A stretch of 64,000 nt of DNA. Source: a bacterium (GTDB taxonomy: Bacteria; Auribacterota; Erginobacteria; Erginobacterales; DAOSXE01). The translations under genes and the position numbers were made by a program. Under the pieces are notes generated by a model. It was not told the origin of the DNA. It was given only the letters and a program-made list of their open reading frames with translations, and did no database searches. Positions 28,132 through 47,290 of the stretch are shown here, piece by piece. Position 1 is the first letter of the stretch; every line of letters begins with the position of its first letter. The stretch is taken from contig DAOSXE010000015.1 of the NCBI GenBank assembly GCA_035380285.1, forward strand, positions 1,927-65,926. Direction: 5' to 3'.

Positions 28132-31100
28132 CTACCGAAGCTCGGAGTAAGGGCTTTCGGGAACCACCTGGTTCTCCAGATCGGAAACGGGGCGGAAGGT
28201 GGTGACCACCGCGCCCGGGGAATAGCGGTGAAGGCGGATCTCCTGGTCCCACGCCCCGGATTTCCCCCAGCGCAGATCGGGGTCGGGATCGGCCCAGGTT
28301 TCGGCGGGAACGTGCCCGGCATGATCCACTCCGGTCCACGTCACCTCCAGCTCCGTCCCTCCCACCGTCAGCACCATCCCGTCGTCGATCCACCGGTAGT
28401 CGCCCTGCAGGTGCCAGCGCACGATCCCCTGGCCGGGAAGGGTATCCTTGACTTCGATTCTCCTGTCTCCGGTCTTGTAGAGAACTACCTCGCGGCGCCA
28501 GCTCAGCGCTCCGACCGTGGAAACGGTGACGCTGCGGGACAGTTCGGAAGTGTCTTCCCAGGTCTCGGCCGCCGCCGGCGGGTAGGTGCCGCCGGTCTCG
28601 ACCAGGTTATGGAGTTTGAACGACGGATTGGAGTAGTTCATGGTCACCCCGGTGACGAACTCCTCGGGACCGACCCCCAGGCTGAGGATATCGTTGCCGA
28701 AGCCGTACCGGTCCTGGCCGCTGCCGGCGACCTGGGCGCCGAGGTCGAGCATGAGGAAAAGGGCGTCGGACCCGGACCCCGACCGGTGGATGACCTTGTC
28801 CGGGGTATCCACCAGTTGCGCCAGGGACTCGTCGTAGACTCCCGCCAACGATTGTCCCGGCATCATCGGCCGGGAGAGCACGCCCCCGGGGCAGTCCCCG
28901 TCGGCGGGCGCCTCGGGAACGAGATCTTCGTTCAGGAACCAGTAGAGGTAGACGGGGTTCATGTACACGGCGAACGGCCCCATCTGGGTGCCGGGGTAAC
29001 CGTAATCGTTGCGGCCGTAGGCCACCACTTCATGGCCCCGCGCGTACTCGAAGGCCTGCTGCAGAAGCCATTTGGCCCGCGCCGCGGCGGACCGGTGCTC
29101 GGGCACGTCATCGTCCAAAACCGCGGTGGCGGCGGCCAGGACTTCGAGGAAACGGTCGGTGAAGGCCTGCAGGTAATCCTGCCCGTAGGCGGGCATGAAC
29201 CCGTTGGGAGGGAAGGTCTCGATCAGGAGACAGACCTGGCGGTAGAAGTTGTCCCGCCACCTCTTGCCTTCCCCGTCCTCCACCGGGATCTCCATCCGGT
29301 TGGAGTAAAGGGCGACCCGCAGCATTTCCCGGATGAAGAGCCCCTGCCAATAGCGCGAGTTTTCGGGCAGGGTCCAGGTGTCGTCGTAACTGAGGAGCCG
29401 GTTGGCCCAGGCAATCATCTCCCGGCCCGGCTCTCCGCCGACGATATACCCCACCACCGCGTTGAGTCCGCAGACCGTCCCCTGCGCATAGTTCCCGGTA
29501 GAAGCGACTTCGCGGCGGTCCAGGGCCAGGCGGACGAATTTCTTCTCGATCTCGGCGCGCTCGGCCGACGAGAAAATCCCGGAGGCGGCCAGGGCCAGGT
29601 AGGCCTCGGCGACGTCGGAGATGCCCCGGGAGGTGGAGGTTCCGCCCCAGTCGAAGGAGGAATCCCGGACCAGGGCCAGCAGGTTCTCGCGAAAATAGTC
29701 GGCGCAGGGCCGGTACCCGGTCGCCAGATAGATGAAAGCGGTGTTGGGGAGATAGTCGTAAAGCGCGAACCGGGCGTCGGACGCCCCCAGGTTGCCGTCG
29801 AAGTTCTTGAAGTAGCACCCGGTGGCGAAATCGATCCAGTCGGCATAGTCCTCCACGGTCAGGCTGGAAATAAACGAGGCCCTCAGGGGGGAGGCCGGGG
29901 AATAATTGCCGTTGGTTTTTCCGGGGGTGCCGAAGTTGGTGGTGGTGCCCACGCTGTAGGTGGAACTGCTCAGCGCCCGGGCCCAGTTGGACTTGGTGGA
30001 ACCGCTCACGTCGGGGTCGAGACGCTCCATCGAAAATCCTTCCTGGGTGGTCACGAACCAGCCGGCGGAACTGCAGTCCACCGTATCGATGGTCTTACCG
30101 GAGTCGTCCTTCAAGACCAGCTTGTCCCCGCTGCCGCCGCACGTCAGCGTACTGGTGGCCTGGGCCCGGGCGCCGTTGGCCTGAACCGGAACGCTCAGGG
30201 CGCTGTTGGCGACGACCACGTAGAACGCCCCCACCGGGAGTTCGTAGCTCTTGAGCGAGATGCTCCAGTTTTCGGAATCGTTGTTCAGGGTCCAGTTTTC
30301 CACCTGCTGGGCGGCATCCCCGTAATTGGCGATCTCGATCCAACAGTAGGTGGGCTGATTCAGGGTGCCGGCGTAATTGATCTCGTTGATGACCAGCTGG
30401 CTGCTGCCGCCGCTGGAAGTGGGAGCCGGCACGGGAGTGGGAGTGGGGATGGGGGTGGGGGGAGGCGTGGGGGTGGTGAGGGTGACCCCGAACCAGGTCC
30501 GGTAAGCTTCCTTGTAGGTTTCCTGGAGGAGTCCGTAGGCCAGGGTCTGCCCTTCCGGCCGATACGGTTCCGGCGGCTCCAGGTCCTGAAGATCGTATTC
30601 CGCCTCCGCCGCGGCCGAGGCCCCGGCGGCCGCGCCGGATACCGGGGTGGGAACGACCGGGGGAAGCCAGCCCGCGCGGGCGAAGGGAGTGGGAGTGGGG
30701 GTGGCCCCGAACGTGTTCAAGTCCTCTATGTCGGGGGCGTACCAGACATGAACGCCGCCGTCTCCGGAAGCGGCGAAGACCATGTCGTCCTCCACCGCCA
30801 GCCCCTGCAGCGGGGCGCCCCCGGCTTCCAGCCTGCGCGCCAGGCGGAACCCGGGCAACTCCCAGACATAGAGGGAGCCGTCGTGACAGGAGGCGTAGAG
30901 AAACCCCCGGGCGGCGGCGGCGCCCGTAACCTGGTCCCGGCAGTCGTCGAGGATTTTCAGGGGAGCGAACTCCAGGGACCAGACATAGACATTCCCGTCC
31001 GAGGAGGAAAGGTATATCCGGTCGGCGTCGGTCGCCACCGAGTTCAGGTCGCTTTCGGCGCCGGCCAGCTCCGCCAGGGGCGCTCCGGTGGTCCGGTCCC

Positions 31101-33924
31101 AGACGTAGAGCGAGTACTCCGAGCCGCCGGTGGCGGCGTAAAGCCGTCCGGCGGCGGCGTCGACCGCCGTCACCCAGCCCCGGGACACCTGCCATTCTTC
31201 CTGCTGCTGAAACCCGTTCCGGTTCCAGGCGTAAACCCGGCGGCCGGTGGTGCCGGCGTAGACCATGCCGCCGTAAGCCGCCACTCCCTCCACCGGATCT
31301 CCGATGCTGGTCTCGCCGCGCAGGGAGCGCACCGGTTTCAGGGCAAGCCGGTCCCATACGTAGACGTTCCCGTCGTCGCTGCCGCCGTAGATGTAGCGGT
31401 CGTCGGCGGCGACCGAGATTATGGCCCCGGCGTTGGGGTAGGAGCAGCGGGAGCGGCGGCTGAAATCGTCGCGGTCCCAGATATAGACGTTGCCGTCCTC
31501 GTTCCCCCCTACCACCGAGCGGGAATCGGCCCAGACGGCCTCCATCCAACCGCTTCCGCCCTCGAGCACCGCCACTTCTTCGAACGGCGCGGGGGTGACG
31601 CTGGGCACGGCCAGCAACTGGGGCGCCGGGGTCGGAGAAAAGGGCGGAGTCCCCGCCGGCGCCGCCCCGCCGGAGGGGGAAACCGTGGGAACGGGGGTCG
31701 GGGAGCCGGGCGGCGTGGAGGCCGGGGTGACGGCGGCGGTCGGCGTCGGCGCGGGGGCTTCCGGGGACGGGGAAGGAACCGACTTCGCCGGCACCTGCAG
31801 CCAACGGTCGTAGTAGGTGTTCCCCTCGACGTCCACGTACCATTCGCGGTCGACGGCGTCGATAACGGGGGGGGGATACACGGCGGTGCGGCCGGCCGCC
31901 GCCCGGGTCGGGAGCTCGGTCAGGATTTCGAAGGAAACGTCCAGATAATCGCCTTCGGCTACGATAAAAGCGGGGTCGGTCCCCAGTTGGAGCTTGACCA
32001 TGACCGGCGCGGCGGGGACGGCGGTGCGGTCGGTGTAGGCGGTGAATTCCTGACAGTAGTCGTAGGTGCGCGCCAGCCACTCCCCGTTGTCGGCCCGGGC
32101 GACGATCCATTTCCAGCCCTTCTGCCCGGCGGCGCGGGTCTCCTTGAGATCGAGATCGGTCACCCGGCTCAGGGAGAGAGGAACGGCGCCGTACTCCGGG
32201 GTCGGAGTGGCGCTGGCGCTGGGGGTGGCGCTGGGGGTCGGGGTCTTGTACCCCTCCGGCGTCGGAGTCGGAGTCGGCGTGGGCGGGCTGGGGGTGGGGG
32301 TATGGTAACCGAAAGGAGTCGGCGTCGCGGTGGGCGCGGGAGTGGGAGTGGTCGGCGGAGTCGGAGTCGGTTCCGGGGTCGGGGTGGGGCGCGAAGAGAC
32401 CGGGGAACACAGCTCTTCGTCGCTGTAGCAGATGCCGTCCCTTCCCAGCCAGAAACGGGACGAGGCCGGAGCGCCCGGGGGCAGGTAGATCCTGGTCTGG
32501 GCGACTTGGGCCTCCCCTTCTTCGAGATAGAAGTACTGGAGGTCCAGGTAATCGCCGGCTTCGATCCGGGGATCCTCGGAATCCTTCTTGATGACCAGCG
32601 AAAGCACCGCGTCCGCGTCCAGCTTGGGCCCGGGACCGGCAAAGGAGTTGAGGCTGTCCTTGACCGAGGCCAGGGGCACATCCTCGCCCGGGGCCTCCAG
32701 GCGGTATTCCCACCCCCAACTCAGGGAGGCGCGGGGCCGGGCGATGGAGAGCGTGTTGATCTGAAACGCCGCCAGGGGGGTGGCGCAGTAGGCCGGAGTC
32801 GGCGACGGCGACGGGGGAACCGTCGGCGTCGGCGCCGCCTGACAGAGGGAGACGTCCCGGTAGAGGACCCCCGTGGAATCGGGGTACCCGACCAGAGGAG
32901 CGGTCGGGTCCAGGTCCAGGGCAGGCAGGGCGATGCTGACGGCGGAACTTCCGGAACCGGTGGCGTAATCGATCTCCAGGGTGTCCCCGGGCTCGATCAC
33001 GATGTTCCCGGAGTACCCGGGATTTTTTATGATGGTCAGGCGCAGGGGGCGGTCGTCGGTGAAAACGGCGGCGACCCGCATCTGGTTGAGGTTGTCGGTG
33101 ACGTAGGCCAGGGTGGTCCTGCCGTCGGCGGTCTGGAGCAGATAGCCCCACCCGTCGGTTGAGGTGCTCCGGGGGTGGGAGAGGCTGAGGGCGTTGATCC
33201 ACCGGGCCCGGAGGGGTTCGCGGCCGGAGCAGTAATCGGGGGTGGGGGTCGGCGTGCCCGGAATCCGGGTGGGCGGGGGCGTCGGCGTCGTCAGGTAGGG
33301 CGTCGGGGAGGTCGGCCAGATGCCGAAGGCTTCGAAATAGAACTGCCGGTAGGCTTCGTCGAGGAGGGACCGGGCCAGGGTCCCGTTCTCTTCCCGGTAA
33401 GGATTCCGCGGGTAGACGGATACCCGGCGCTCGGCGCCTTCGGGCGTGGTGATGACGACGACGATCTCCTCGCTTTCGTCCCGGTGCAATCCGCCCCGGG
33501 CGGCCGCGGCCGCGGCCGCGGTCGGACCCGGGCTGGGGGTGGGGATCCGGCTGGGCGTGGGCACCGGCGTGGGCGGCGTGGCCAGGACCACGCCGAACGC
33601 CTGGAAATAAAACTCCTTGAAGCCCCGGCCGAGCAGGGAATAGTCCAGGCTCCGGTTTTCGGGCCGGTAGTCCTCCCGGGGCTCCACCATCGTCTCGCGG
33701 GTCTCCCCCGAGGGCTCGACCACGACCACGTCCACCTTCTCCGCGCCCCCGCCGTGGAGCCCCAGGCCGGCCTCGCGGGAGGCGCCCGGAACTCCCGGCA
33801 CCCGGAAGACCCGGCCGGGAGAGGGCGAGGGAGACGGCGTCGGGGACTCGGCGCCCTCGCTCCGGAGAGGGGACAGGGCCGCGGCCAGGAGCGCCCAGGC
33901 GAAAAAGAGCGGCCGCGCCTTCAC
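28132..33924 (-). CDS. giant secreted multidomain protein (1930 aa): Pro/Thr linkers, beta-propeller repeats, lamin-tail-like domain, C-terminal heparinase II/III-like region
   Basis: Signal peptide MKARPLFFAWALLAAALSPL; many PTPTP linkers; repeated DGNVYVWD-type blades; LVINEINY...WIEIANYGD segment; ~600-aa C-terminal region of helical-then-beta character; start overlaps the upstream stop (ATGA). Confidence 0.75.
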   Translation of the reverse strand: MKARPLFFAWALLAAALSPLRSEGAESPTPSPSPSPGRVFRVPGVPGASREAGLGLHGGGAEKVDVVVVEPSGETRETMVEPREDYRPENRSLDYSLLGRGFKEFYFQAFGVVLATPPTPVPTPSRIPTPSPGPTAAAAAAARGGLHRDESEEIVVVITTPEGAERRVSVYPRNPYREENGTLARSLLDEAYRQFYFEAFGIWPTSPTPYLTTPTPPPTRIPGTPTPTPDYCSGREPLRARWINALSLSHPRSTSTDGWGYLLQTADGRTTLAYVTDNLNQMRVAAVFTDDRPLRLTIIKNPGYSGNIVIEPGDTLEIDYATGSGSSAVSIALPALDLDPTAPLVGYPDSTGVLYRDVSLCQAAPTPTVPPSPSPTPAYCATPLAAFQINTLSIARPRASLSWGWEYRLEAPGEDVPLASVKDSLNSFAGPGPKLDADAVLSLVIKKDSEDPRIEAGDYLDLQYFYLEEGEAQVAQTRIYLPPGAPASSRFWLGRDGICYSDEELCSPVSSRPTPTPEPTPTPPTTPTPAPTATPTPFGYHTPTPSPPTPTPTPTPEGYKTPTPSATPSASATPTPEYGAVPLSLSRVTDLDLKETRAAGQKGWKWIVARADNGEWLARTYDYCQEFTAYTDRTAVPAAPVMVKLQLGTDPAFIVAEGDYLDVSFEILTELPTRAAAGRTAVYPPPVIDAVDREWYVDVEGNTYYDRWLQVPAKSVPSPSPEAPAPTPTAAVTPASTPPGSPTPVPTVSPSGGAAPAGTPPFSPTPAPQLLAVPSVTPAPFEEVAVLEGGSGWMEAVWADSRSVVGGNEDGNVYIWDRDDFSRRSRCSYPNAGAIISVAADDRYIYGGSDDGNVYVWDRLALKPVRSLRGETSIGDPVEGVAAYGGMVYAGTTGRRVYAWNRNGFQQQEEWQVSRGWVTAVDAAAGRLYAATGGSEYSLYVWDRTTGAPLAELAGAESDLNSVATDADRIYLSSSDGNVYVWSLEFAPLKILDDCRDQVTGAAAARGFLYASCHDGSLYVWELPGFRLARRLEAGGAPLQGLAVEDDMVFAASGDGGVHVWYAPDIEDLNTFGATPTPTPFARAGWLPPVVPTPVSGAAAGASAAAEAEYDLQDLEPPEPYRPEGQTLAYGLLQETYKEAYRTWFGVTLTTPTPPPTPIPTPTPVPAPTSSGGSSQLVINEINYAGTLNQPTYCWIEIANYGDAAQQVENWTLNNDSENWSISLKSYELPVGAFYVVVANSALSVPVQANGARAQATSTLTCGGSGDKLVLKDDSGKTIDTVDCSSAGWFVTTQEGFSMERLDPDVSGSTKSNWARALSSSTYSVGTTTNFGTPGKTNGNYSPASPLRASFISSLTVEDYADWIDFATGCYFKNFDGNLGASDARFALYDYLPNTAFIYLATGYRPCADYFRENLLALVRDSSFDWGGTSTSRGISDVAEAYLALAASGIFSSAERAEIEKKFVRLALDRREVASTGNYAQGTVCGLNAVVGYIVGGEPGREMIAWANRLLSYDDTWTLPENSRYWQGLFIREMLRVALYSNRMEIPVEDGEGKRWRDNFYRQVCLLIETFPPNGFMPAYGQDYLQAFTDRFLEVLAAATAVLDDDVPEHRSAAARAKWLLQQAFEYARGHEVVAYGRNDYGYPGTQMGPFAVYMNPVYLYWFLNEDLVPEAPADGDCPGGVLSRPMMPGQSLAGVYDESLAQLVDTPDKVIHRSGSGSDALFLMLDLGAQVAGSGQDRYGFGNDILSLGVGPEEFVTGVTMNYSNPSFKLHNLVETGGTYPPAAAETWEDTSELSRSVTVSTVGALSWRREVVLYKTGDRRIEVKDTLPGQGIVRWHLQGDYRWIDDGMVLTVGGTELEVTWTGVDHAGHVPAETWADPDPDLRWGKSGAWDQEIRLHRYSPGAVVTTFRPVSDLENQVVPESPYSELR

Positions 33925-34481
33925 TTGCGTTCCGCCCCCTGGTTTTTGAGGGGCTCGGCCGAAATGATCGTCGCCTCGACGTCGAGCAGGTCGTCGTTCT
34001 TGCGGTTGAGAGCCACGGTCAGTTCCCGGATCACCTGGCTGCCTCCGTTCTGGTACTCGACGGCGTAGAGAAAGTCCACCAGTTGATCCAGGGGGACCCC
34101 CGCCAGCTCCACCTGCAGCTCCACCACCTTATACAGGTCGTGCACGGTCCGGTTGCGGGTGTTCATCTTGGTCAGTTCGGCCGCCGGGGCCTTCTCCGCG
34201 GCCAATTTCTCGATCAGGCCCTGATTCAGCACGGTTTCGCCGCCCACCCCGCCCATGCCCCGGAGGATCTGGTCGGTTTTGGACCGCAAGACCGCGTACT
34301 TGCGGTGGAGACGTTCCATCTTCTGCAGGGAGATCTCCTGCTCTTCGATCCGTTCGTTGACGCCGACCCATTGGTCCCAGAGCGAACCTTCCCGCAGGAA
34401 AAGAAACCAGACCACGGCGATGAGAAGAAACCCGCCGCCGCCGACGAGCACCGTCCGTTTTTCCCGTTGCTTGAGGGCCAT
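33921..34481 (-). CDS. type II secretion GspM-like protein
   Basis: Single N-terminal TM (LVGGGGFLLIAVVWFLFL) plus ~150-aa periplasmic domain, positioned after the GspL-like gene. Confidence 0.5.
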   Translation of the reverse strand: MALKQREKRTVLVGGGGFLLIAVVWFLFLREGSLWDQWVGVNERIEEQEISLQKMERLHRKYAVLRSKTDQILRGMGGVGGETVLNQGLIEKLAAEKAPAAELTKMNTRNRTVHDLYKVVELQVELAGVPLDQLVDFLYAVEYQNGGSQVIRELTVALNRKNDDLLDVEATIISAEPLKNQGAERK

Positions 34482-34484
34482 CCG

Positions 34485-36113
34485 TTACTCCTGGCGGATA
34501 AGGGGAATGGTGTAGGTGAACTCGACCGTCACCGTCTTCGCCCCGTCTTTCCTGGTCTTGGCCGGGCTTTCCTTGAGTTGGTCGCCGATGAACAGCGCCG
34601 AGGACTGAATCGCCTTCTTGATCAGTTCGGCGGTGCCGTAATTCTCGGTGCGGGCCCGCAAGCGGACACGGTCCTGGTTGATGTCGAGTTCGACCACCTG
34701 GACCTTGAGCTTGTCGGGAATGACCCGGCTCAGTTCCAGGAGGGCGTCCAATCCGGAAATGCTGCTGAACTCCCGGTAGTAATCGAAATTATCCCGCATC
34801 TCCTTCAGGGAATCCTCCATGGCCTGCAGCTCGCGGCCCCGGGCCTGCTGGGCCTGTTCGGGGAAAGCCGAAGCCAGAATTCCGGAGATGCGGGCCTGGA
34901 GAGCGGCCGATTCCGTCTCCTTCGCCCCCATCCTCAGGTGCAGGGAAACGGCGAACGCGGCCAAGAGGCCCAGAATCAACCCCAAGGTGATCAGAAGGCG
35001 CCGGCGGACCGCTCCCCACGAACCCGCCCAGGTCAACTCCTCCTTGCGGAAATTCACCCGCCGGCCCTCCCGGCCCACGGCGAACGAGGCCATCCCCATC
35101 GCTTCCCCGGCCCCGGGGAGGCGGTGCTTTCCTTCCCTGACGCCCGTCCAGGGATCGGCCGGCTGCGAGGCGCCCCCCGCCAGCCGCTCCAGGGACTCCC
35201 GCAACCCGGGGAGGTCCGCGCCCCCTCCGGTCAGGAGCAGCCGGTCCGGCGGCCGGCCCCCGGTCGCGGCGCCGGCGGTGTGCAGGGTCCGGGAAATCTC
35301 GGCTTCGAAACGGGCCAGACAGGCGCTCACGGCCGCTTCCACCTTCCCGGCTTCGGGGGCGCCCAGGCCGACCCCGCGTTTGAGGCTCTCGGCTTCGGGA
35401 AACGGGGCCCCCGTCTCCTTCATGACGGCGGCGGTGACGGTATCGCCCCCCCAGGTGAAACTTCGCAGCAGCACCAGGCGCCCGTCCTGGAAGAACCCGG
35501 CCGAGGTGTGCGCGGCCCCGACCTCGAGCAGGGCGGTCACGCCGGAGTCGAGAATCTGCCCTCCCCGGCGGCAGGCGTCGGCGAGACCGGGGAAATCGAC
35601 TCCGATCCCGGCGGGGTCGATCCCGGCCTCGGCCAGAAGTTCCAGTTGGCCGGCCAGGAAATCCTTGCGGGCGGCGACCATCATCACCCTGGTCTTGCCC
35701 TCTTCCAGGACTTCCTGAGGCCAGAAGTCGATGACCACCTGGTCCAACGGGAAGGGTATGTGCAGTTCCGCCTCCGAGGAGATGACCTGTTCGATCAGGT
35801 TGAGGCGGGTGAAGGGGACGACCAGGCTGCGCAGGAAAACCCGGTGCAGGGGCAGGGCACAGACGGTCACTTCCGCCCGGGGCGCCTTCGGGGAAAAAAG
35901 CTCGCGCAGCGCCGCGGCCGTTTCTTCCCGTCCCGGCGCCGCGGGGGCGGTCCGGGCGATCGCGGCGGAGCGGGCCCAGGAAACCCGCGGAAGCCGGCCC
36001 CGGGCGCGGCGGGCCACCACCGCGCGAACGGCGGTGGTGCCGATGTCGATCCCCAGCGCGCTGCCGGGGATATCGGCCCGCTGCCTCATTTTTTCCAAGA
36101 AGTCTTTCATCAT
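34485..36113 (-). CDS. type II secretion GspL / PilM-PilN-like assembly protein
   Basis: N-terminal actin-like ATPase-fold motif (LGIDIGTTAVRAVV), central TM, periplasmic C-terminal domain. Confidence 0.6.
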   Translation of the reverse strand: MMKDFLEKMRQRADIPGSALGIDIGTTAVRAVVARRARGRLPRVSWARSAAIARTAPAAPGREETAAALRELFSPKAPRAEVTVCALPLHRVFLRSLVVPFTRLNLIEQVISSEAELHIPFPLDQVVIDFWPQEVLEEGKTRVMMVAARKDFLAGQLELLAEAGIDPAGIGVDFPGLADACRRGGQILDSGVTALLEVGAAHTSAGFFQDGRLVLLRSFTWGGDTVTAAVMKETGAPFPEAESLKRGVGLGAPEAGKVEAAVSACLARFEAEISRTLHTAGAATGGRPPDRLLLTGGGADLPGLRESLERLAGGASQPADPWTGVREGKHRLPGAGEAMGMASFAVGREGRRVNFRKEELTWAGSWGAVRRRLLITLGLILGLLAAFAVSLHLRMGAKETESAALQARISGILASAFPEQAQQARGRELQAMEDSLKEMRDNFDYYREFSSISGLDALLELSRVIPDKLKVQVVELDINQDRVRLRARTENYGTAELIKKAIQSSALFIGDQLKESPAKTRKDGAKTVTVEFTYTIPLIRQE

Positions 36114-36131
36114 CTTCGCGTCGCCGCCGGC

Positions 36132-38967: not shown

Positions 38968-38988
38968 GACGTCGAGGGCTCCCCGGCC

Positions 38989-39408
38989 TCAGTTGGCGAT
39001 ATCCTGGTTCTCGCCTTCGCCGCCGGGGGACGCGTCCTTGCCGTAGGAGACGATGGTGTAATCGGCTCCCTCGGCCCCGCCTTTCGTGTAGATGTAGGCG
39101 TTCCCCCAGGGATCCTTGGGAATCTCCTGCTTCTTCAGGTAGGGCCCCGACCACCCGTCCGTGCTTCCCTCGGCCCGGACCAGGCCGTCGAGACTGCCGG
39201 GATAGTCGTAGACGTCGGCGTAGTACATCTCCAAGGCGTCGGCGAACGCCTGGATCTGGGCCTGGGCGGCGGCCTGCTTTCCCCGCCCGATGCGCTTCAT
39301 GAAAGCCGCCCCCACCACCGCGGTCAGGAGCCCGATGATGGCGATCACCACCATCAGCTCGACCAGGGTGAACCCCGCGGACCGTTGTCGTGCGTTCTTT
39401 CTTTTCAT
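38989..39408 (-). CDS. gspG: type II secretion major pseudopilin GspG
   Basis: GFTLVELMVVIAIIGLL prepilin N-terminus and DPWGNAYIY signature. Confidence 0.85.
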   Translation of the reverse strand: MKRKNARQRSAGFTLVELMVVIAIIGLLTAVVGAAFMKRIGRGKQAAAQAQIQAFADALEMYYADVYDYPGSLDGLVRAEGSTDGWSGPYLKKQEIPKDPWGNAYIYTKGGAEGADYTIVSYGKDASPGGEGENQDIAN

Positions 39409-39500
39409 GCTACCTCCCCCCGGCGCCGGAGAGAGACCCGGAGGGTTTCCCCGCCGCGCTCCCGGCGCCGGTTTTCGTTTTGTTCGTCACGAGCGTCTTC

Positions 39501-40721: not shown

Positions 40722-40758
40722 CCGTCTTCCCGTCCCGTTCGCCGGGCCGCTCCCGGCT

Positions 40759-42486
40759 TCAGACCTCGATGATATCTTCCTGCGTGACCCGGATCACTTC
40801 CTCGACGGTCGTCTCTCCGCTCACGACCTTGCGGGCCCCGTCCATTCTCAGGGTGCGCATCCCCCGCTTGAGGGCGGCGCGCTTGATCGTGCCCACGTCC
40901 ACCCGCTCCACCACCATCCGCCTGATCTCGTCGTCGACCAGCAGCAGTTCGAATATGGCCGAACGCCCCATGTAGCCGGAATGAAAACACTTCTCGCATC
41001 CCTTTCCCCGTACCAGGGGGCGCCCCTCGAGCTGGTCGAGGGCGAGGCCGATGCTTTTGAGTTCCTCCTCGCTGGGCGCGTAGGACTCACCGCAGTGGGG
41101 GCAGATGGTGCGGACCAGGCGCTGGGCCATGATCCCCACCACCGAGGAAGAGACCAGGTAGGGCTCGACTCCCATGTCGATCATCCTGGTGATGGCCCCG
41201 GCGGCGTCGTTGGTGTGGAGGGTGCTGAAGACCAGGTGGCCGGTCAGCGAAGCCTGGATGGCGATTTCGGCGGTCTCGGTGTCGCGCATCTCGCCGACCA
41301 GGACGATATCCGGGTCCTGGCGGAGAATCGAGCGCAACCCGTTGGCGAAGGTGAGGTTGATCTTGGGAGCGACCTGGATCTGCCCGATCCCGGGCAGCTG
41401 GTACTCCACCGGGTCCTCGATGGTGATGATGTTCTTGTCCAGGGAGTTCATCTCGTGCAGAGCGGCGTAGAGCGTGGTGGTCTTTCCCGACCCCGTGGGC
41501 CCGGTCACCAGGATGATGCCGTGGGTGAGTTTCAACAGCCGGCGCAGGAGCTTAAGGCCGTCGTCGCCCAGCCCCAGATCGTGGAGCCCGAACAACTGGC
41601 TGGACTTGTCCAGGAGCCTCAACACGATCCGTTCCCCGAACGAAACCGGGATGACCGAGACCCGGATATCGATCTCCCGGTCGGTGATCCGGATCTTGAT
41701 CCTGCCGTCCTGGGGGAGGCGCTTCTCGGCGATGTTGAGGTTGGCCATGATCTTGACGCGGGAGATGATCGAGGACTGGTACTGTTTGGGCGGGCTGAGG
41801 ACCTCGTAGAGAACGCCGTCGATCCGGTAGCGGACCCGCAGGTCCTTTTCGAAGGGTTCGATGTGGATATCGCTGGCCCGGGCCTTGACCGCCTCGAAGA
41901 TGATCAGGTTGATCAATTTGATCACCGGGGCCTTGGCGGCGATGTCCAGAAGGTCCTCGGCGGCGTCGGTGATGGTCACCATCTCCGGAGCGTCTTCGTC
42001 TTCCTCCAGCCCCTCCAACATGGCCTCGGCGGCGCCGTCGGCGTGTCCGTAGCAGCGGTTGGCGATCCGGACGATCTCCTCGGGCACCGAGACGATCACG
42101 TCCAGGTTGCGGTCGAGAAGAAGGCGGAGGTCGTCCAGAGGCTGAACGTCGAGGGGGTCGGCCATCGCCACCTTGACCGTTCCGTCGGCGGACGCACCCA
42201 GGGGGATAAGCCGGTTGGCCAGAAGAAAATTGAGCGGGACCCGGGAGACCAGCGCCTTGTCCACGCGCTCCTCGGTCAGGTGCTCCTCGAAGGGGAACCC
42301 CAGGCATTCGGCCAGGGCCCGGCGGACCTGGCTGTCCCGAACCAACCCGGCTTCGATCAGTTCCTCGGTCAGCGACCGGCTTTCGCCCGGAGACCATTTA
42401 TCCAGAACCTTGTCCAGAGCCGGCCGGGCGAGGGCGCCGGCGCCGACCAGCTTCTCGGCTACTTCCTTTTCCAGAACCTCGTTCAT
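40759..42486 (-). CDS. gspE: type II secretion ATPase GspE
   Basis: Walker A GPTGSGKTTT, Asp box, tetracysteine CPHCG...CEKCFHSG near C-terminus. Confidence 0.9.
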   Translation of the reverse strand: MNEVLEKEVAEKLVGAGALARPALDKVLDKWSPGESRSLTEELIEAGLVRDSQVRRALAECLGFPFEEHLTEERVDKALVSRVPLNFLLANRLIPLGASADGTVKVAMADPLDVQPLDDLRLLLDRNLDVIVSVPEEIVRIANRCYGHADGAAEAMLEGLEEDEDAPEMVTITDAAEDLLDIAAKAPVIKLINLIIFEAVKARASDIHIEPFEKDLRVRYRIDGVLYEVLSPPKQYQSSIISRVKIMANLNIAEKRLPQDGRIKIRITDREIDIRVSVIPVSFGERIVLRLLDKSSQLFGLHDLGLGDDGLKLLRRLLKLTHGIILVTGPTGSGKTTTLYAALHEMNSLDKNIITIEDPVEYQLPGIGQIQVAPKINLTFANGLRSILRQDPDIVLVGEMRDTETAEIAIQASLTGHLVFSTLHTNDAAGAITRMIDMGVEPYLVSSSVVGIMAQRLVRTICPHCGESYAPSEEELKSIGLALDQLEGRPLVRGKGCEKCFHSGYMGRSAIFELLLVDDEIRRMVVERVDVGTIKRAALKRGMRTLRMDGARKVVSGETTVEEVIRVTQEDIIEV

Positions 42487-42504
42487 CGCCTTTCTCCCGC
42501 CGGC

Positions 42505-44937
42505 CTACTGGCGCAAGCGCGCGGTCCCCCGTTTCGTCTCTTCCTCGTCGGGGCGGCCGAAGGTTACCCGGGGCAGGTTGTTGAGGAACCCCAGGGCGCT
42601 CCCGGAATCGGTTTCGGCCGGAACCGCCTCCGGCGGTTTTTCTTCGGAAGCGGCCGTCTCCGGTGCCGGTTCCGCGGGGGCGGAAACTTCCTCCGGCGCC
42701 GGTTTCGCCTCGGAAACGGCGGCTTCCGGGGCCTCGCCCGCGGGGGGCGCGGCCTCCGATTTCTCCTCGTACGCGGCCGCGGGAGCGGGCTCTTCCTCCT
42801 CCCCGGCGGCCGCCCGTTCTTCCCGGAGGACCCGGTCGAAGAAGGCGGAACCGGAATTCTCTTCCCGGTAGATGCTCTTGAGTTCGTCGAGGCGCTCCTG
42901 CTGCTTGCGCCGCGCCTCTTCTTCCCGCAGCCGGGTCTCGTTTTCGTCCTCGGAGAGGCGCAGGTCGATATAGGGCATTTCGTGCCGTTTCATCGCGGTC
43001 AGATCGGCGATCTGCTGGGTGGTTTTGACCACCCGGGGCGTGATGAAGACCAGGAGGTTGCGCTTGGCGGTGGTGTTGGTCTCCCAGCGGAAGAGATATC
43101 CCAGCAGGGGGATGTCGCCGAGGAAGGGGATCTTGTCCTCGGTCTGGGTCTTTTCGTCCTGGATCAGGCCGGAGATCACGATGGTGTGGTTGTCCTTGAC
43201 GATGACGTTGGTTTCGGTGATGCGCTTGTAGGTTTCCGGGGTCAGGTAGTACCCCGACACCGATTGACCGATGATCGACGAAATCTCCTGGCTGATCTCG
43301 AGCCGGACCATGCGGTCGCGGCTGATGTGGGGGGTGATCTTGAGTTTGATCCCCACGTCCTTATACTCGATGTCCTGATAATCGTTGTTGTTGTCGTTGC
43401 TGTTGATCTCGATCTTGCTCACGTAGGGGATGTTCTTGACCACTTCGATCGACGCTTCCTCGTTGTCCATGGTCAGGACCTGGGGAGTGGAGAGGATATC
43501 GACGTCCTGGTTGGTCTGAAGGGCATGGATGAGCACGGCCAGGTCGGGGATGCTGGTGCCGGTGCCCGCCATCTTCTGAACGAACCCCATGGTCCCCCCG
43601 GAAAGGCCGCTGGTGACGATGGCGGTGGGATCGGAGGCCTGAGCGGCGAGCATGGAGGAGAGGGCGTTCCCGCTGGAAGACCAGCTCGAACCTCCGTAGC
43701 CCTGGGCGTTGCTGCGGCCGGCGCCCATGGAAGAATAACCCTGCCCGGTGGGAAGCCCCTGGGTCTGCCCCTCGTTGCCGATCGACTGGATCTCGACGCC
43801 GAGTTCGAAGGACTTGTCGTAAGCGACTTCGGCGATCAGGACCTCGACCAGGACCTGGTCGCGCATGATGTCCAGCTGCTTGATGATGTTCTGCAGGGAG
43901 GCGTAATCCTCGGGGGTGGCGTCGATGATCAGGGAGTTGGTGGCCTTGTCTTCGCTGATGAGGGGGACGACCTCCCCTCCCGTGGTTTTGCGCTTGCCGA
44001 TGACGTTGTTGAGGACCTTGGATATCTCTTCGGCGTCGGAGTTCCGGAGAAAATAAACGTGGATGTTGGTGCGTTCGGTTTCGACGTCGAGCTTCTTGAT
44101 CAGTTCGATGACCTGGCGGGTGTCTTCGGAGTTGGCGAGGATGATCAGGGAGTTGGTCCGTTCGTCGGCGATGAGCTTGAGAGTCGATTCCGTGGGCTGC
44201 AGCTGCTGGCGGTTGCGGCGGCGGGGGGTGGGGGGCGTCCCCGGAACCGTTCCGGCTTCCTCGATGACCTGGGTCAGTTCCGCCGCCAGGGTCTCGGCGG
44301 CGGCGTAGCGCAGGGGCAACACCGTGATTCGGGTCTCGTAGCCGGGAACGTCGAGTTCCTTGATGATCTTGACCAGCCGGTGGATGTTGGAGGAAACGTC
44401 GGTCACGATCAGGGTGTTGGTCATGGGATAGGGGATGACGCTGGCCTCCTTGGAGAAGAGCGGCCCCAGGGCGGCCCGGACCTTCTCGACCTCGGCGTAC
44501 TCCAGGGGAATGAGCTGCGTGATCAGGGTGTCTTCGGGCACGATCTGTTCCAGGTTGTCGCCGACCGCGGTCTGGATGTTCCTCTGGCTGCCCAGGCGCT
44601 TGGTCGAGACCTTGATCACTTTCCCCGAGGGGACGGCGGTGAACCCGCGCACTTCCAGGATCGATTCGAAGACCTTGTAGGCCTCGTCCAGGGGGATCAT
44701 GGTGGGGGAGATGACGGTCACCGTGCCCCGGACGTCGTTGTCGACGATGAAGTTCTTCCCGGTCAGATCGCTGATGTACTTGATGACCAGCCGGATGTCG
44801 ACGTTGTCGAAATCCATGCTGACCATGCCTTCGTCGTCCGCCGGCTGCTGCGCCCGGACCGGCCTCCCGGGAAAAGCCAGTCCCAGGAGGCAAAGAAGGA
44901 GGACGGGTAGTGTGCGGATTCCGTGGTTTTTTCTCAT
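42505..44937 (-). CDS. gspD: type II secretion secretin GspD with Ala/Glu/Pro-rich C-terminal extension
   Basis: Signal peptide, N-domain repeats, secretin core (VPFLGDIPLLGYLFR), ~150-aa low-complexity tail. Confidence 0.9.
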   Translation of the reverse strand: MRKNHGIRTLPVLLLCLLGLAFPGRPVRAQQPADDEGMVSMDFDNVDIRLVIKYISDLTGKNFIVDNDVRGTVTVISPTMIPLDEAYKVFESILEVRGFTAVPSGKVIKVSTKRLGSQRNIQTAVGDNLEQIVPEDTLITQLIPLEYAEVEKVRAALGPLFSKEASVIPYPMTNTLIVTDVSSNIHRLVKIIKELDVPGYETRITVLPLRYAAAETLAAELTQVIEEAGTVPGTPPTPRRRNRQQLQPTESTLKLIADERTNSLIILANSEDTRQVIELIKKLDVETERTNIHVYFLRNSDAEEISKVLNNVIGKRKTTGGEVVPLISEDKATNSLIIDATPEDYASLQNIIKQLDIMRDQVLVEVLIAEVAYDKSFELGVEIQSIGNEGQTQGLPTGQGYSSMGAGRSNAQGYGGSSWSSSGNALSSMLAAQASDPTAIVTSGLSGGTMGFVQKMAGTGTSIPDLAVLIHALQTNQDVDILSTPQVLTMDNEEASIEVVKNIPYVSKIEINSNDNNNDYQDIEYKDVGIKLKITPHISRDRMVRLEISQEISSIIGQSVSGYYLTPETYKRITETNVIVKDNHTIVISGLIQDEKTQTEDKIPFLGDIPLLGYLFRWETNTTAKRNLLVFITPRVVKTTQQIADLTAMKRHEMPYIDLRLSEDENETRLREEEARRKQQERLDELKSIYREENSGSAFFDRVLREERAAAGEEEEPAPAAAYEEKSEAAPPAGEAPEAAVSEAKPAPEEVSAPAEPAPETAASEEKPPEAVPAETDSGSALGFLNNLPRVTFGRPDEEETKRGTARLRQ

Positions 44938-45016
44938 GCGGTTTCCCCTGCTCGATGTTGGCTCTGTAATCGGCTTCGTTTCCCGGGCCCGCGCGGGCGC
45001 CCGTTGCCGATTCGTT

Positions 45017-45970
45017 TCATTGCGTCGGATCCAGTTCCTGGTCCTGGACCAGATATTCCAATTGAACGTGCCGGTCCCCCCGGAGGACGTCGACGACCAC
45101 CGTCTGCGCGTCCTGGATCTTGAGGAGGATGTCCATGGCTTCCTGTTTGCCGGTGATGGTCAACCCGTTGACTTCCTGGATCACGTCCCCCTCCCTCACC
45201 CCCAGCTTGTAGGCCAGGTGCTCCCGGGGCAGGACGACGATCTCGTAACCGGAGGCCGGCCCCCGGGTCCGCCCCTGGGGCGGATACCAGGGACGGCACC
45301 CCACCGTCCGCAGGGAGCCGATGACGTCGTCGGGGACCAGCCGGAAGTTCTCCCCCCCGCGGGCCAGCTTCTCCAGCATCTTCTCGTTGACCAGCTTCCA
45401 CATCCCCCGGCGGCTGACCAGCCAGCGGTTCGGCCCCAGTTTCTTGAAGACCCGGGAAAAATGGAGCCGGTTTTCCGGGACCGGGATGTGGCCGATGAAC
45501 GACGAGATCACGTGGCGGCGGCCGTTGTTCTCCAGGGTGACGTCGATGCGGTCGATTTCGACCACCCGCCAGCCCCGGATGACGTCGTCGAGGCGGTAGA
45601 TCTTCTGGGTCTTGCTGGCCAGGTCCTCGATGATCGCCCAGCTGCGGCGGGGATCGTCGAAGACCGAGGTTCCCTTGAGTTCGAGGCGGGGCGGCGGCGC
45701 CGTCGGGGGCGGCGGGGTCGGGGGCGCTTTTTCCTCGGGCGGCTGGAACTTGGTCTGCCAGAGGTTGCGCGCGAGGATGGCGCCGTAGTAGCCGGGGCCG
45801 GGAGCCGAAGCTTCCCCCCCGGAGCCGCCGTCGTGCTCGTAGGTCACCGACGCGCCCACCTCGCCGGCGCGGGGCGGAACGACGATGGTCCAGATCAGAT
45901 ACCCCACGCCGGCGGCCAGGACGATCCCCAGGAAGTAATTGACGAAGCTGATGTAGCGGCGCGGTATCAC
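45017..45970 (-). CDS. GspC-like protein with C-terminal PDZ domain
   Basis: N-terminal TM, Pro-rich linker, PDZ-like GDVIQEVNGLTITGKQEAMDILL at the C-terminus; directly upstream of gspD. Confidence 0.6.
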   Translation of the reverse strand: MIPRRYISFVNYFLGIVLAAGVGYLIWTIVVPPRAGEVGASVTYEHDGGSGGEASAPGPGYYGAILARNLWQTKFQPPEEKAPPTPPPPTAPPPRLELKGTSVFDDPRRSWAIIEDLASKTQKIYRLDDVIRGWRVVEIDRIDVTLENNGRRHVISSFIGHIPVPENRLHFSRVFKKLGPNRWLVSRRGMWKLVNEKMLEKLARGGENFRLVPDDVIGSLRTVGCRPWYPPQGRTRGPASGYEIVVLPREHLAYKLGVREGDVIQEVNGLTITGKQEAMDILLKIQDAQTVVVDVLRGDRHVQLEYLVQDQELDPTQ

Positions 45971-46713
45971 TCCCCCCCCTCCGTCCCGGCGGCGGCCGAG
46001 GCCGCGCGCTCGCGGCGGACCCGCCGCGCCAGTTCGTCGACCTGGAACGCGGGGGGGAGCAGGACCGCTTCGCCCTCCCGCTTGCGGCCGGCATTGAGCA
46101 GGAACCGGAAATCGCCGTGGAGGTCCCTGACCAGCTCGCGGTAGCGGGACCCGGGGGAGAGCGTCCGGGTGAGGGAGAGGGCCCGCCCCTGAAGGTCGCG
46201 GGAAACGATGTCCTCCAGCAGTTCGTCCCAGGTCCCGTAGCCGCCGGCCTCCAACCGGTCCAGGACCTCCTCCACCTGCTCCAGGTAGTCGACCAGGACC
46301 GCGTCCGGGTCGCGGACGGGCGACGGGGAAAACGTCAGGGCCTCGGTGAAGGAGGGAGCCGGCCGGCGGACGAGGAAAAACCAGCCCGTCCCGGCCAGCA
46401 CGACGACGGCGGCGGCCGCCGCCGCCACCCGCGCCAGGGGAAGAATCGGAAAGACCGGGGGCTTTTTAAGTTCCTGTTCCAGCCGCTCCACCACGGCGTG
46501 GTCGGCGGCGGGGGAGAACACGGGGGGAGCGGCGGGGAGAGACTCCCAGGCCCGGGAGAGTTCCTCGCGGTAAGCCCGGCAGCCGGGGCAGTCCTCGAGG
46601 TGCTCGCGGACCCGCTCGGAAAAGCAGTCGGGCCCCGCGATCCCCAGGATCCGGTCCCGCAGGAGTTCCCGCACGGATCGACAATTCTCAGGTTGTTTCT
46701 TCATTCCCTTCAT
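45967..46713 (-). CDS. anti-sigma factor (zinc-finger type, HxxxCxxC)
   Basis: N-terminal HLEDCPGC motif, central TM; overlaps the end of the ECF sigma gene. Confidence 0.6.
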   Translation of the reverse strand: MKGMKKQPENCRSVRELLRDRILGIAGPDCFSERVREHLEDCPGCRAYREELSRAWESLPAAPPVFSPAADHAVVERLEQELKKPPVFPILPLARVAAAAAAVVVLAGTGWFFLVRRPAPSFTEALTFSPSPVRDPDAVLVDYLEQVEEVLDRLEAGGYGTWDELLEDIVSRDLQGRALSLTRTLSPGSRYRELVRDLHGDFRFLLNAGRKREGEAVLLPPAFQVDELARRVRRERAASAAAGTEGGE

Positions 46714-47290
46714 CGAGGTAGCGGCTCAGGCGCAGGCGGAGGTGCTCCAGGGCGTAATGCAGCCGCGACCTCACCGTCCCCGGCGGGACTCCGGTAACTT
46801 CGGCGATTTCACGGTAGGTCAGCCCGTTGATGCGGTTCAAAACAACCACCTCGCGGTGCGCCGCGCTCAATTCCCGCAATTCCCGGTCCAGCATTTCCCG
46901 GAACTCGGCGGCGGCGGCCTCGTCGCCGGGGCCGGGCCCCGGATATTCCAGCAGGTCCCCGTGGGTCGTTCCTTCCTCCTCTTCGGACGTCAAAGGCGCG
47001 TCCAGGGACCAGGTCCGTTTGCGTTTCATGCTCCTCAATTCGTCGCGGCAACGGTTGGCGGCGATGGCATAGAGCCAGGTCTTGAATTTTTTCCCCGCCC
47101 GGAACTTCGGCGCTCCGCGAAACACCCGTATGAACGTATCCTGATAAGCCTCCTGGGCCCGGTGGTAGTCCCGGATCATTCCCACCATGAACGCCATCAG
47201 GGGATCCCGGTAGCGTCCCATCAGCTCTTCCAATGCGCCCGTGTCTCCGCCGGCGCAGCGTTCGATCAGTTTCTCGTCGGTTTCAATCAT
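46688..47290 (-). CDS. ECF-family RNA polymerase sigma factor
   Basis: Sigma-70 region 2 (DTFIRVF ... WLYAIAANRCRDE) and region 4 (LTYREIAEVTGVPPGTVRSRL). Confidence 0.9.
   Translation of the reverse strand: MIETDEKLIERCAGGDTGALEELMGRYRDPLMAFMVGMIRDYHRAQEAYQDTFIRVFRGAPKFRAGKKFKTWLYAIAANRCRDELRSMKRKRTWSLDAPLTSEEEEGTTHGDLLEYPGPGPGDEAAAAEFREMLDRELRELSAAHREVVVLNRINGLTYREIAEVTGVPPGTVRSRLHYALEHLRLRLSRYLDEGNEETT

Follow-up and report, generated by a model that had tools for sequence, protein, structure and literature searches.

Genes for an ECF sigma/anti-sigma pair, a type II secretion machine and a giant lyase-like exported protein form one conserved row in Candidatus Auribacterota

Gene content and packing of the locus

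The window, i.e., the entire stretch of 64,000 nucleotides that was analyzed, contains a row of 15 minus-strand genes that runs from position 47290 down to 27419 without any gap exceeding 92 nt. The row starts with an ECF sigma factor and an anti-sigma factor, continues with GspC to GspM and ends with a 1930-aa protein carrying a signal peptide and a 215-aa open reading frame. Divergently oriented genes bound it at its head and a convergent gene at its end. Its features are as follows:

47375..47403, minus strand: sigma-70-like site TTAACA-17-TAAGAT, possible basal promoter (consensus scan only)
47298..47323, minus strand: ECF-class promoter TGAAC-N17-CGTA (sequence conservation, motif scan)
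46688..47290, minus strand: ECF (group 4) sigma factor, 200 aa (Sigma70_r2, Sigma70_r4_2, Sigma70_ECF; TIGR02937)
45967..46713, minus strand: single-pass anti-sigma factor, 248 aa (zf-HC2, NF052375, HxxxCxxC)
45017..45970, minus strand: GspC, 317 aa, T2SSC region and C-terminal PDZ (T2SSC match)
42505..44937, minus strand: GspD secretin, 810 aa (type_II_gspD_N0, Secretin_N, Secretin)
40759..42486, minus strand: GspE ATPase, 575 aa (T2SSE, 476 bits, E 6e-143; MshEN)
39501..40721, minus strand: GspF inner-membrane platform, 406 aa (T2SSF in two stretches, 205 bits, E 3e-61)
38989..39408, minus strand: GspG major pseudopilin, 139 aa (T2SSG, 101 bits, E 6e-29; N_methyl)
38491..38967, minus strand: GspH minor pseudopilin (GspH, above Pfam cutoff)
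38088..38507, minus strand: GspI minor pseudopilin (N_methyl; XpsI/GspI matches below cutoff)
37409..38095, minus strand: GspJ minor pseudopilin (T2SSJ, above Pfam cutoff)
36132..37409, minus strand: GspK minor pseudopilin (425 aa) containing an acidic insertion (NF037980)
34485..36113, minus strand: GspL-equivalent, 542 aa (PilM_2, E 2e-28)
33921..34481, minus strand: GspM, 186 aa (T2SSM, 28.5 bits, cutoff 27.8)
28132..33924, minus strand: giant exported protein, 1930 aa (signal peptide; follows GspM)
27419..28066, minus strand: conserved cytoplasmic protein, 215 aa, three small beta-barrel repeats

An earlier note on this DNA had named the same genes, and strand and coordinates bear it out for each of them; the range it gave for the unit, beginning at 28132, left out the 215-aa reading frame (27419-28066) that its own text counted as a member. 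This gene is indeed next in the row here and it is conserved, but other genomes carry it elsewhere, so that its link to the unit is loose. From head to end, successive genes are separated by -26, -4, 79, 18, 37, 92, 21, -17, -8, -1, 18, 3, -4 and 65 nt, with at least five junctions overlapping. Neither an intergenic minus-strand terminator within the row nor an intrinsic terminator 3' of the giant gene or of the 215-aa gene was found. Real genes have a GC3 of 0.77-0.90 at a genome GC content of 65%; long plus-strand reading frames across the region (e.g., 40630-44910) were dismissed as antisense shadows on the basis of codon-position GC.

The secretion machine

GspC combines an HR region (T2SSC, 28.3 bits at a cutoff of 27; GspC_delta, 89.9 bits at a cutoff of 150) with a PDZ domain, the matches to which stay below cutoff. 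Such a protein is specific for type II secretion systems (T2SS) and missing from type IV pili, and profile searches found none of PilT, PilN, PilO and PilP in the row. The gspC gene overlaps the stop codon of the anti-sigma gene by 4 nt. GspD is a secretin (type_II_gspD_N0, 89.8 bits; three stretches of Secretin_N; Secretin, 178 bits, E 1e-52) that has a signal peptide and ends in an acidic tail of about 170 aa rich in Glu, Ala and Pro, and its homologues carry the NCBI name GspD. GspE, GspF and GspG are all present, and the minor pseudopilins GspH, GspI, GspJ and GspK follow in canonical order and position. GspK reaches 84 bits with NF037980, below the cutoff of 130, and matches T2SSK_1st weakly, while its orthologues match T2SSK.

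The designation GspL used in the earlier note is right as to position. By family, the protein belongs to PilM_2/FtsA and not to T2SSL, for which the gene at this place yielded no match: it is a 542-aa fusion of a PilM/FtsA-like cytoplasmic domain to a transmembrane and periplasmic part, and also matches an Amuc_1101-family PilM-like model (E 6e-33, below cutoff). We take a PilM-like gene at this position to be structurally equivalent to gspL. The description of the system as complete applies to the row from GspC to GspM; a Pfam scan of most of the likely genes in the 64-kb window returned no prepilin peptidase GspO (Peptidase_A24), and neither GspN nor a pilotin was present among the scanned genes. 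In many bacteria GspO is encoded apart from the other Gsp genes, and it may be encoded elsewhere in this genome as well.

The sigma/anti-sigma pair and its promoter

The sigma factor matches Sigma70_r2 and Sigma70_r4_2 with E values of about 1e-16 and TIGR02937 with 97 bits (cutoff 42.9). Its gene overlaps that of the anti-sigma factor by 26 nt. Three parts make up the anti-sigma factor: the zinc motif HxxxCxxC towards the N-terminus, a single transmembrane helix and, in the periplasm, a conserved domain of about 130 aa (residues ~116-248) that matches no known family. Its matches to zf-HC2 (19.6 bits at a cutoff of 22.2, E 1e-3) and to the anti-sigma model NF052375 (E 7.5e-8) are weak and below cutoff, respectively; the zinc-motif residues H38, C42 and C45 are nevertheless invariant in four lineages, and motifs in the periplasmic domain are also conserved. 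The sigma factor has no regions other than 2 and 4 and is paired with a putatively co-transcribed class I anti-sigma factor bearing HxxxCxxC, which places it in ECF group 4. No FecR domain or TonB-receptor match was detected in the anti-sigma factor or in neighboring genes.

A promoter-like element, TGAAC-N17-CGTA, ends 7 nt before the ATG of the sigma gene, so that the transcript would have no leader or a very short one. The window contains no other intergenic match, the chance expectation being 0.43. In the window and in the related loci L095, L096 and L097, TGAAC and CGTA are invariant and equally spaced within an upstream region that cannot otherwise be aligned, and each of the related loci (about 22 kb each) contains exactly one match, always before the sigma gene. 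Conserved in four lineages, this AAC-type -35 and CGT-type -10 element is a putative autoregulatory promoter; it is of the same motif class as the promoters of Bacillus ECF sigma factors, with -35 tgaAAC and -10 CGTA (PMC5758882). A second strict match within gspK (36547-36573, spacer 18) is not conserved and was rejected as chance level, and the relaxed motif GAAC-N16-18-CGT occurs at chance frequency (32 observed, 31.5 expected). The sigma-70-like site upstream of the ECF promoter, with 9 of 12 consensus matches, is weak and as frequent as expected by chance for the region.

A conserved single promoter would fit with the entire row being read from it under autoregulation. As it is the only one of ECF type, it could reach genes as far as 20 kb downstream only by read-through. 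Gaps between genes in the relatives reach 160-284 nt and could offer room for independent promoters.

Conservation in related genomes

When one genome for each GTDB species was scanned with GspE, the matches listed included no close relative, the best of them being 57% identical; relatives were found via homologues of GspD and of the giant protein. The order sigma factor, anti-sigma factor, GspC to GspM and giant is kept in L095, L096 and L097, which extend to the sigma end and represent divergent lineages of Candidatus Auribacterota (GspD 59-66% identical; sigma orthologues at the same position, 52-53% identical). The assertion that an ECF sigma factor belongs to the same unit as the Gsp genes and the giant is borne out by recurrence. 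In every further contig that reaches past GspM (L009-L013), the giant gene follows. Flanking genes vary between lineages: those downstream differ in L009-L013, and L095 has a ribosomal/rpoA cluster upstream. Because the row recurs in three divergent Auribacterota lineages, we regard it as a conserved unit and not as a chance neighborhood. Among close relatives, one type of GspD was seen. In the window, L096 and L097, genes for a signal-peptide-bearing M10 metalloprotease and a PPIase adjoin the sigma gene.

The coupling of the giant to the machinery stated in the earlier note is supported by gene order in the relatives. The 4-nt overlap with gspM is real, but the start codon is GTG and the shared sequence GTGA instead of ATGA, and translational coupling by such an overlap would be confined to this genome, the gap between gspM and the giant gene in relatives being 32-230 nt.

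The giant exported protein

The N-terminal part of the 1930-aa protein comprises a Sec signal peptide, two modules of about 50 aa termed YRPEN and three beta domains of about 130 aa. A WD40 propeller (residues ~785-1075), a third YRPEN module and a lamin-tail domain (1174-1283) make up the middle, and a polysaccharide-lyase-like domain of 586 aa (residues 1345-1930, window positions 28135-29892) forms the C-terminus; Pro/Thr linkers separate the parts. Cargo of type II systems must carry a Sec signal peptide, and one is present in all homologues of the giant. A JGI gene call of 1867 aa was rejected because the signal peptide, present in every homologue, is missing from it. We also discarded the idea that the YRPEN module is a secretion tag shared with other proteins; the module is confined to giant genes.

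The C-terminal domain combines an (alpha/alpha) toroid with a beta-sandwich, i.e., the fold of heparinase II/III-like polysaccharide lyases (PL12/15/17/21/33/35 type). Similar folds are found in GAGase II (8khv), PL35 (9o3q), PL17 (9irq), PL40 (9vtk), PL12 (5jmf/4fnv), PL15 (3a0o) and DS-epimerase (6hzn), with sequence identities of only 9-13%, and searches of Pfam, NCBIfam and PDB with the giant and its distant homologues, including a profile, gave no match that would place it in a lyase family by sequence. The domain family is rare: in 1.84 billion clusters, no more than 23 representatives could be detected. Stand-alone members have signal peptides or membrane anchors, and one combines the domain with Laminin_G_3 and dockerin. 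Lyases of this type have a catalytic Tyr/His and a residue that neutralizes charge at the cleft between toroid and sandwich. Tyr, Asn, Glu, Arg, Lys and Trp positions are invariant in the family. Several residues conserved in the rest of the family are replaced in this genome and in P0131, the relative nearest to it: ENS(R/A)HY reads ENSRYW, PHNG reads PPNG, HRxxW reads HRSGS and YAN reads FGN, such that the conserved His of ENSxHY and that of PHNG are absent. Judging from these substitutions, catalysis may be altered or lost in this genome and in P0131.

A model for the row and its alternatives

The genes present, their tight packing, the synteny and promoter kept in relatives, the signal peptides and the fold are established; we infer that the sigma factor controls the genes behind it, that the giant is secreted via this machine and that it is an enzyme. 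In the reading that we cautiously prefer, and hold to be somewhat better than an even bet, the row is a self-contained Candidatus Auribacterota module in which the ECF pair drives a T2SS together with its 1930-aa lyase-like cargo. [quoted passage not shown] The earlier note suggested envelope stress as the signal and a single dedicated substrate; both are speculative. The freed sigma factor would then fire its own promoter, TGAAC-N17-CGTA, and read-through along the 15-gene row would provide GspC to GspM and the giant protein. The latter would be exported to the periplasm by Sec, fold there and pass through the GspD secretin as the principal cargo. Its conserved business end would be the C-terminal domain from a rare family represented in no Pfam model, and the propeller, the lamin-tail and the beta domains on their Pro/Thr linkers would serve in binding or spacing. 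Given the heparinase II/III-like lyase fold, the cargo would act on acidic extracellular polysaccharide.

T2SSs usually secrete several substrates, and the machine might accordingly be the lineage's general-purpose housekeeping system for many exoproteins, with the giant merely co-encoded and the ECF pair tuning the machine. The single GspD type among close relatives and the exported M10 metalloprotease and PPIase conserved beside the sigma gene speak for this option. Against it, the giant stays with GspM across lineages in which the flanks have changed, and the cargoes of housekeeping systems are usually scattered around the genome; we therefore rate it as possible but rather unlikely. We give still less credence to the giant remaining on the machine or the cell surface as a PilY1-like adhesin or binding platform, in which the lyase-like domain would be a carbohydrate-binding module. 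Such a role would suit a protein of this size that is exported by Sec, has a beta-propeller and is encoded within a pilus-like operon; substituted His, Trp and Tyr residues are compatible with binding without catalysis, and the phylum was described in print as having 'type IV pili', with no T2SS listed (PMC9324843). However, the row contains a GspC with PDZ, a T2SSG-type GspG, GspK and GspM and lacks PilT, PilN, PilO and PilP, the giant gene comes after GspL-M and not beside the minor pseudopilins, the protein has no match to the PilY1/PilC family (Neisseria_PilC), its propeller being solely of the canonical WD40 type, and inspection revealed no C-terminal anchoring signal.

A periplasmic or envelope enzyme acting on the cell's own polysaccharide (compare AlgL and the C5-epimerase), which came to lie beside the T2SS through co-regulation or history, appears very improbable: 200-kDa beads on Pro/Thr linkers with a propeller and a lamin-tail domain are typical of an extracellular protein, and the giant is linked specifically to GspM, whereas glycosyltransferase neighbors vary. 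Doubtful, too, is a more far-reaching version, restricted to the phylum, of a closed sensory-secretory circuit, in which the periplasmic domain of the anti-sigma factor would monitor the cargo or polysaccharide products and the T2SS would serve a single 200-kDa protein that either founds a new lyase family or stays in place as a PilY1-like organelle at the pseudopilus tip.

Should the preferred model of an ECF-driven module with its own cargo be true, machine, regulator and cargo would be united in one compact, portable transcription unit in a phylum without cultured members, a single 586-aa domain would be a candidate for a new polysaccharide-lyase family, and sigma factor, anti-sigma factor and promoter would make up a triplet with a defined target motif that is usable as an orthogonal switch. 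The model would also correct the published picture of Auribacterota envelope systems and point to extracellular polysaccharide breakdown in the ecology of the phylum, in anoxic digesters and lakes. Our understanding of the mechanisms of type II secretion or ECF signaling is left unchanged.

Comparison with known systems

Large Sec-exported cargo proteins (116-165 kDa) that are encoded in or next to a gsp operon and depend on it are reportedly represented by PulA of the Klebsiella pul system and by SslE (YghJ) of E. coli T2SS-beta. Both are said to be lipoproteins, a pullulanase and a mucinase, whose genes lie upstream of the gsp genes or diverge from them. The row described here shares with them a large Sec-exported, here putative, cargo encoded with gsp genes but differs in lipoprotein nature, gene position and enzyme class, and we know of no ECF pair in the pul or T2SS-beta operon. 

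In Pseudomonas, the VreI/VreR pair adjoins the Hxc T2SS and LapA and regulates the T2SS together with its cargo; overexpression of the sigma factor VreI raises hxc and cargo transcripts (PMC2729926). Both loci have an ECF pair directly beside a T2SS cluster and, at the cluster end, a cargo gene, dedicated there and putative here. VreI/VreR, however, is a FecI/FecR-type surface-signaling pair with the receptor-like VreA, whereas here the anti-sigma factor is a single-pass protein with a zinc motif, without FecR and without a receptor gene. Moreover, the ECF pair occupies the first two places of a packed row, unlike VreI/VreR, the phyla differ, and a 1930-aa lyase-like protein takes the place of a small phosphatase.

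Among the classic cargoes of type II systems are polysaccharide lyases: the Out system of Dickeya and Pectobacterium exports folded pectate lyases, and its GspC and GspD take part in cargo recognition (PMC7949064). Unlike the giant, the Out pectate lyases are small beta-helix proteins, many per system, and encoded elsewhere in the genome. On the regulatory side, sigma-W/RsiW of Bacillus subtilis is likewise an autoregulated sigma/anti-sigma operon with a -35 tgaAAC and a -10 CGTA (PMC5758882), and the best NCBIfam matches include SigW models, at scores below the equivalog cutoffs. The periplasmic domains of the anti-sigma factors are unrelated, and the operon runs on into 13 further genes here. 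The main text of the ECF reclassification names the T3SS-linked ECF32 and no T2SS-linked group (PMC7826278). Since the row is kept in relatives, we see in it a lineage-specific version of a known design and not a new kind of system.

Composition and conservation of the gene row

The row consists of fifteen minus-strand genes extending from 47290 down to 27419, as the earlier note had described it, an observation that is confirmed. Successive genes are separated by -26, -4, 79, 18, 37, 92, 21, -17, -8, -1, 18, 3, -4 and 65 nt. GC content of the window is about 65%, and a third-position GC of 0.77-0.90 marks the real genes, a measure by which long ORFs on the opposite strand were rejected as antisense shadows. 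At the head of the row, profile searches recognized an ECF sigma factor followed by an anti-sigma factor with one membrane pass. The Gsp genes they support are GspC (T2SSC region and PDZ domain), the secretin GspD (N0, N-domains and secretin domain), GspE, GspF, GspM and five pseudopilins, of which GspG is the major one and GspH, I, J and K are minor. By sequence, the assignments of GspD, E, F and G are unambiguous; GspC, H, J and M score barely above the curated cutoffs, and GspI and GspK, which fall below, are assigned in part by their position in the row. The place of GspL is taken by a 542-aa PilM-like protein outside the T2SSL family, a correction to the earlier note. The system had also been called complete: GspC to GspM are indeed found, with this reservation for GspL, and no prepilin peptidase, GspN or pilotin is present among the window genes scanned. 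GTG is the start codon of the giant gene, whose overlap with the GspM stop codon reads GTGA, not ATGA. Two of the Gsp proteins carry acidic regions:

42505-43020 (-), last ~170 aa of GspD, forming a long acidic tail rich in Glu, Ala and Pro; most relatives lack it or have a shorter one (740-765 aa vs 810 aa)
36132-37409 (-), GspK, with an acidic Asp/Glu/Gly-rich insertion

Identical genes are present in two NCBI MAGs and on a JGI metagenome contig of 159 kb. Among named organisms, GspD, the giant and the 215-aa product of the last gene in the row have their closest relatives in MAGs of Candidatus Aureabacteria/Auribacterota and of the 'PVC group', Ca. Euphemobacter frigidus being one of them. 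The detailed published description of the phylum lists type IV pili and makes no mention of type II secretion (PMC9324843). When contigs encoding giant homologues (41-44% identity over the best local alignment) were compared, the giant was located directly 3' of GspM in a GspD/E-to-M row in every such contig (L009-L013). GspD homologues with 59-66% identity were used to reach the sigma end, and the three lineages whose contigs extend far enough (L095, L096, L097) exhibit the order sigma, anti-sigma, GspC to GspM, with sigma factors 52-53% and anti-sigma factors 32-36% identical. A 1756-1881-aa WD40/LTD protein follows GspM in L095 and L097, and L096 stops at GspM.

In the window, the row is bordered by divergent plus-strand genes for Maf, PPIase and M10 peptidase at the sigma end and by a convergent plus-strand gene at the far end. 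Upstream lies a ribosomal-protein/rpoA cluster in L095, while L096, L097 and the window share genes for PRK, TPR and PAC2 proteins, a ~610-aa unknown gene, PPIase and M10 peptidase, the last two being conserved neighbors of the sigma gene that are encoded on the same strand in L096 and L097 and inverted in the window. The downstream flank is a HAMP-SpoIIE gene in the window, GT9-GT2-UDPGP in L009 and L013 and DUF4139/YjeF in L011. The arrangement is beyond chance, and as gene order is kept while the flanks differ between lineages, the stretch from sigma to giant is a conserved unit.

A predicted ECF-type promoter in front of the sigma gene

The regions upstream of the sigma gene in the four lineages (window, L095, L096, L097) align hardly at all, save for TGAAC, exactly 17 nt and CGTA, which are invariant in all four. 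CGTA ends 7 nt before the sigma start codon in the window and L095, and 14 nt before it in L096 and L097. Judged by its sequence, the predicted element belongs to the ECF sigma promoter class; the autoregulatory promoter of Bacillus sigma-W has tgaAAC at -35 and CGTA at -10 (PMC5758882). A single strict match is present in each relative locus (~22 kb), in every case by the sigma gene; the giant and the gsp genes there are preceded by none. The window has two, with 0.43 expected by chance: one is the site at the sigma gene; the second, inside gspK, has another spacer, is not conserved and was discarded. The anti-sigma factors of the four lineages share an invariant HxxxCxxC and one transmembrane helix, and their periplasmic domain of ~130 aa has conserved motifs and belongs to no known family. 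Together, predicted promoter and sigma/anti-sigma pair show the features of an autoregulated ECF module. We infer that some 13 downstream genes would be transcribed from the sigma promoter, because the genes are tightly packed and co-oriented, no intergenic terminators were found within the window row and the order is conserved. Intergenic gaps reach 284 nt in relatives and could hold promoters of their own.

The giant protein carries a lyase-like C-terminal domain

The giant opens with a Sec-type signal peptide, followed by two 'YRPEN' modules and three beta domains of ~130 aa each. A single WD40-type propeller comes next, then a third YRPEN module and a lamin-tail domain (49 bits vs a cutoff of 34), and the protein ends in a C-terminal domain of 586 aa; Pro/Thr-rich linkers separate the parts. 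Homologues of 1543-2358 aa retain this order and differ in how many propellers and beta domains they have. Because all of them have signal peptides, a JGI gene call of 1867 aa, truncated and devoid of a signal peptide, was rejected. The YRPEN modules (~50 aa each, consensus E/PxxxYRPENxxLxYxLLxxxYKxxYxxxFG) occur two or three times per homologue, each immediately ahead of a Pro/Thr linker, and nowhere outside giant genes in the window or the other loci compared:

33577-33738 (-), first YRPEN module
33319-33459 (-), second YRPEN module
30469-30612 (-), third YRPEN module

Conservation is highest in the C-terminal domain (46-65% identity), which has no sequence match in Pfam, NCBIfam or PDB. When 1.84 billion cluster representatives were searched exhaustively with HMMER, only 23 relatives came up, none with a Pfam family in the homologous region; they include stand-alone exported proteins, and one has Laminin_G_3 and dockerin domains. 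The confident AlphaFold model (pLDDT 81, pTM 0.87, 13-sequence alignment) consists of a helical toroid followed by a beta-sandwich.

Structural matches of the modeled C-terminal domain (match, score)
GAGase II, 20.4 (462 residues aligned)
PL35 chondroitinase, 19.1
PL17 alginate lyase, 18.6
PL40 ulvan lyase, 18.3
heparinase III, 17.9 / 17.6
dermatan-sulfate epimerase, 17.5
PL15 oligoalginate lyase, 17.0

The domain probably represents a new lyase-like family, carried by the putative cargo of the T2SS. A caveat is that several positions conserved in the rest of the family are replaced in the window genome and in its nearest relative P0131; in the window genome, ENS(R/A)HY reads ENSRYW, PHNG reads PPNG, HRxxW reads HRSGS and YAN reads FGN.

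The 215-aa gene at the end of the row

The gene (27419-28066 in the window) comes after the giant in four lineages. L098 and L099 carry it behind a gene with a ParB_N domain, beside GT9-GT2-UDPGP and with no T2SS nearby; in L100 it stands alone. We treat it as a loosely attached neighbor rather than a proven part of the system. Its product is cytoplasmic, lineage-restricted and more conserved than the giant, with three small beta-barrel repeats and the motif TDxAYL...GxExWxPK; some family members are annotated by JGI as 'RNase P/MRP subunit p29'.

Proposed mechanism and alternatives

The anti-sigma factor would keep sigma at the membrane until a periplasmic cue frees it. Sigma would then boost its own operon and hence machine and cargo, a step we regard as somewhat favored. 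With similar, guarded confidence we propose that the cargo crosses the inner membrane via Sec, folds and exits through GspD. Outside the cell, the giant may bind or cleave an acidic polysaccharide, with chances of catalysis in the window orthologue evenly balanced. The earlier proposal of a secretion system dedicated to one envelope-stress-regulated substrate is upheld in part and sharpened: the row from sigma to giant is conserved and has a predicted ECF-type promoter, dedication to one substrate is one possible reading of it, and envelope stress as the signal is an assumption.

A rival is a general-purpose T2SS with several cargoes, and a candidate for a second cargo is encoded beyond the sigma gene:

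48954-50414 (+), 486-aa M10 (matrixin-type) metalloprotease with signal peptide, HEIGHLLGLGH and a repeat-rich C-terminal half
48134-48952 (+), adjoining PPIase

The constant position of the giant behind GspM, in lineages whose other flanks have changed, argues against this rival. Less probably, the giant might remain on the cell surface or the pseudopilus, or be a periplasmic glycan-processing enzyme that is merely co-located with the T2SS.

Other features of the window

A block of ~10 kb with 51% GC, vs 65% for the genome, is bounded by a tRNA gene:

11282-21812 (-), low-GC block
21739-21812, tRNA-Ala(GGC)
56568-57935 and 58031-58405 (-), outside the block, two genes with lysine-rich regions of the histone H1-like HC2 (chlamydial nucleoid protein) type

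The block encodes a Methyltransf_35 protein, a GHKL ATPase, a type II C5 DNA methylase with Vsr nicking endonuclease, a phosphopentomutase-like metalloenzyme, a 604-aa RuBisCO-large-like protein, a flavin reductase and a GNAT-HAD fusion. The GNAT-HAD fusion, flavin reductase and RuBisCO-like genes are present on the independent MAG contig L007 as well, as far as the locus reaches, so an assembly chimera can be dismissed for this part at least. The block is probably an island gained by horizontal transfer at the tRNA. One of the two HC2-region genes is fused to a phosphoribulokinase/uridine-kinase domain.

Comparison with known systems

Cargo genes attached to gsp operons are exemplified by PulA and SslE. 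Among the best 80 GspE loci from GTDB species representatives, 15, all labeled Acidobacteriota (including L033, L034, L044 and L049), have an ECF sigma gene on the strand of GspE and ~1.8 kb upstream of it. In L033 (8043-11692), genes for an ECF sigma factor, a zinc-motif anti-sigma-like protein and a 228-aa protein precede GspE-F-G, and the secretin lies ~10 kb beyond. ECF-headed GspE-F-G rows of the type II secretion or type IV pilus-like kind thus occur in at least a second phylum as well; the ECF reclassification paper names no T2SS-linked group in its main text (PMC7826278). Polysaccharide lyases secreted by T2SS are already familiar (PMC7949064). In the closest documented design, VreI/VreR of P. 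aeruginosa is encoded next to the Hxc T2SS with its cargo LapA, and hxc and lapA transcripts rise when the sigma factor VreI is overexpressed (PMC2729926). VreI/VreR, however, is of the FecI/FecR type with the receptor-like VreA, neither of which is found in the window system. An ECF-headed T2SS row in an uncultured phylum is tidy and testable, and will come as no surprise to the specialist.
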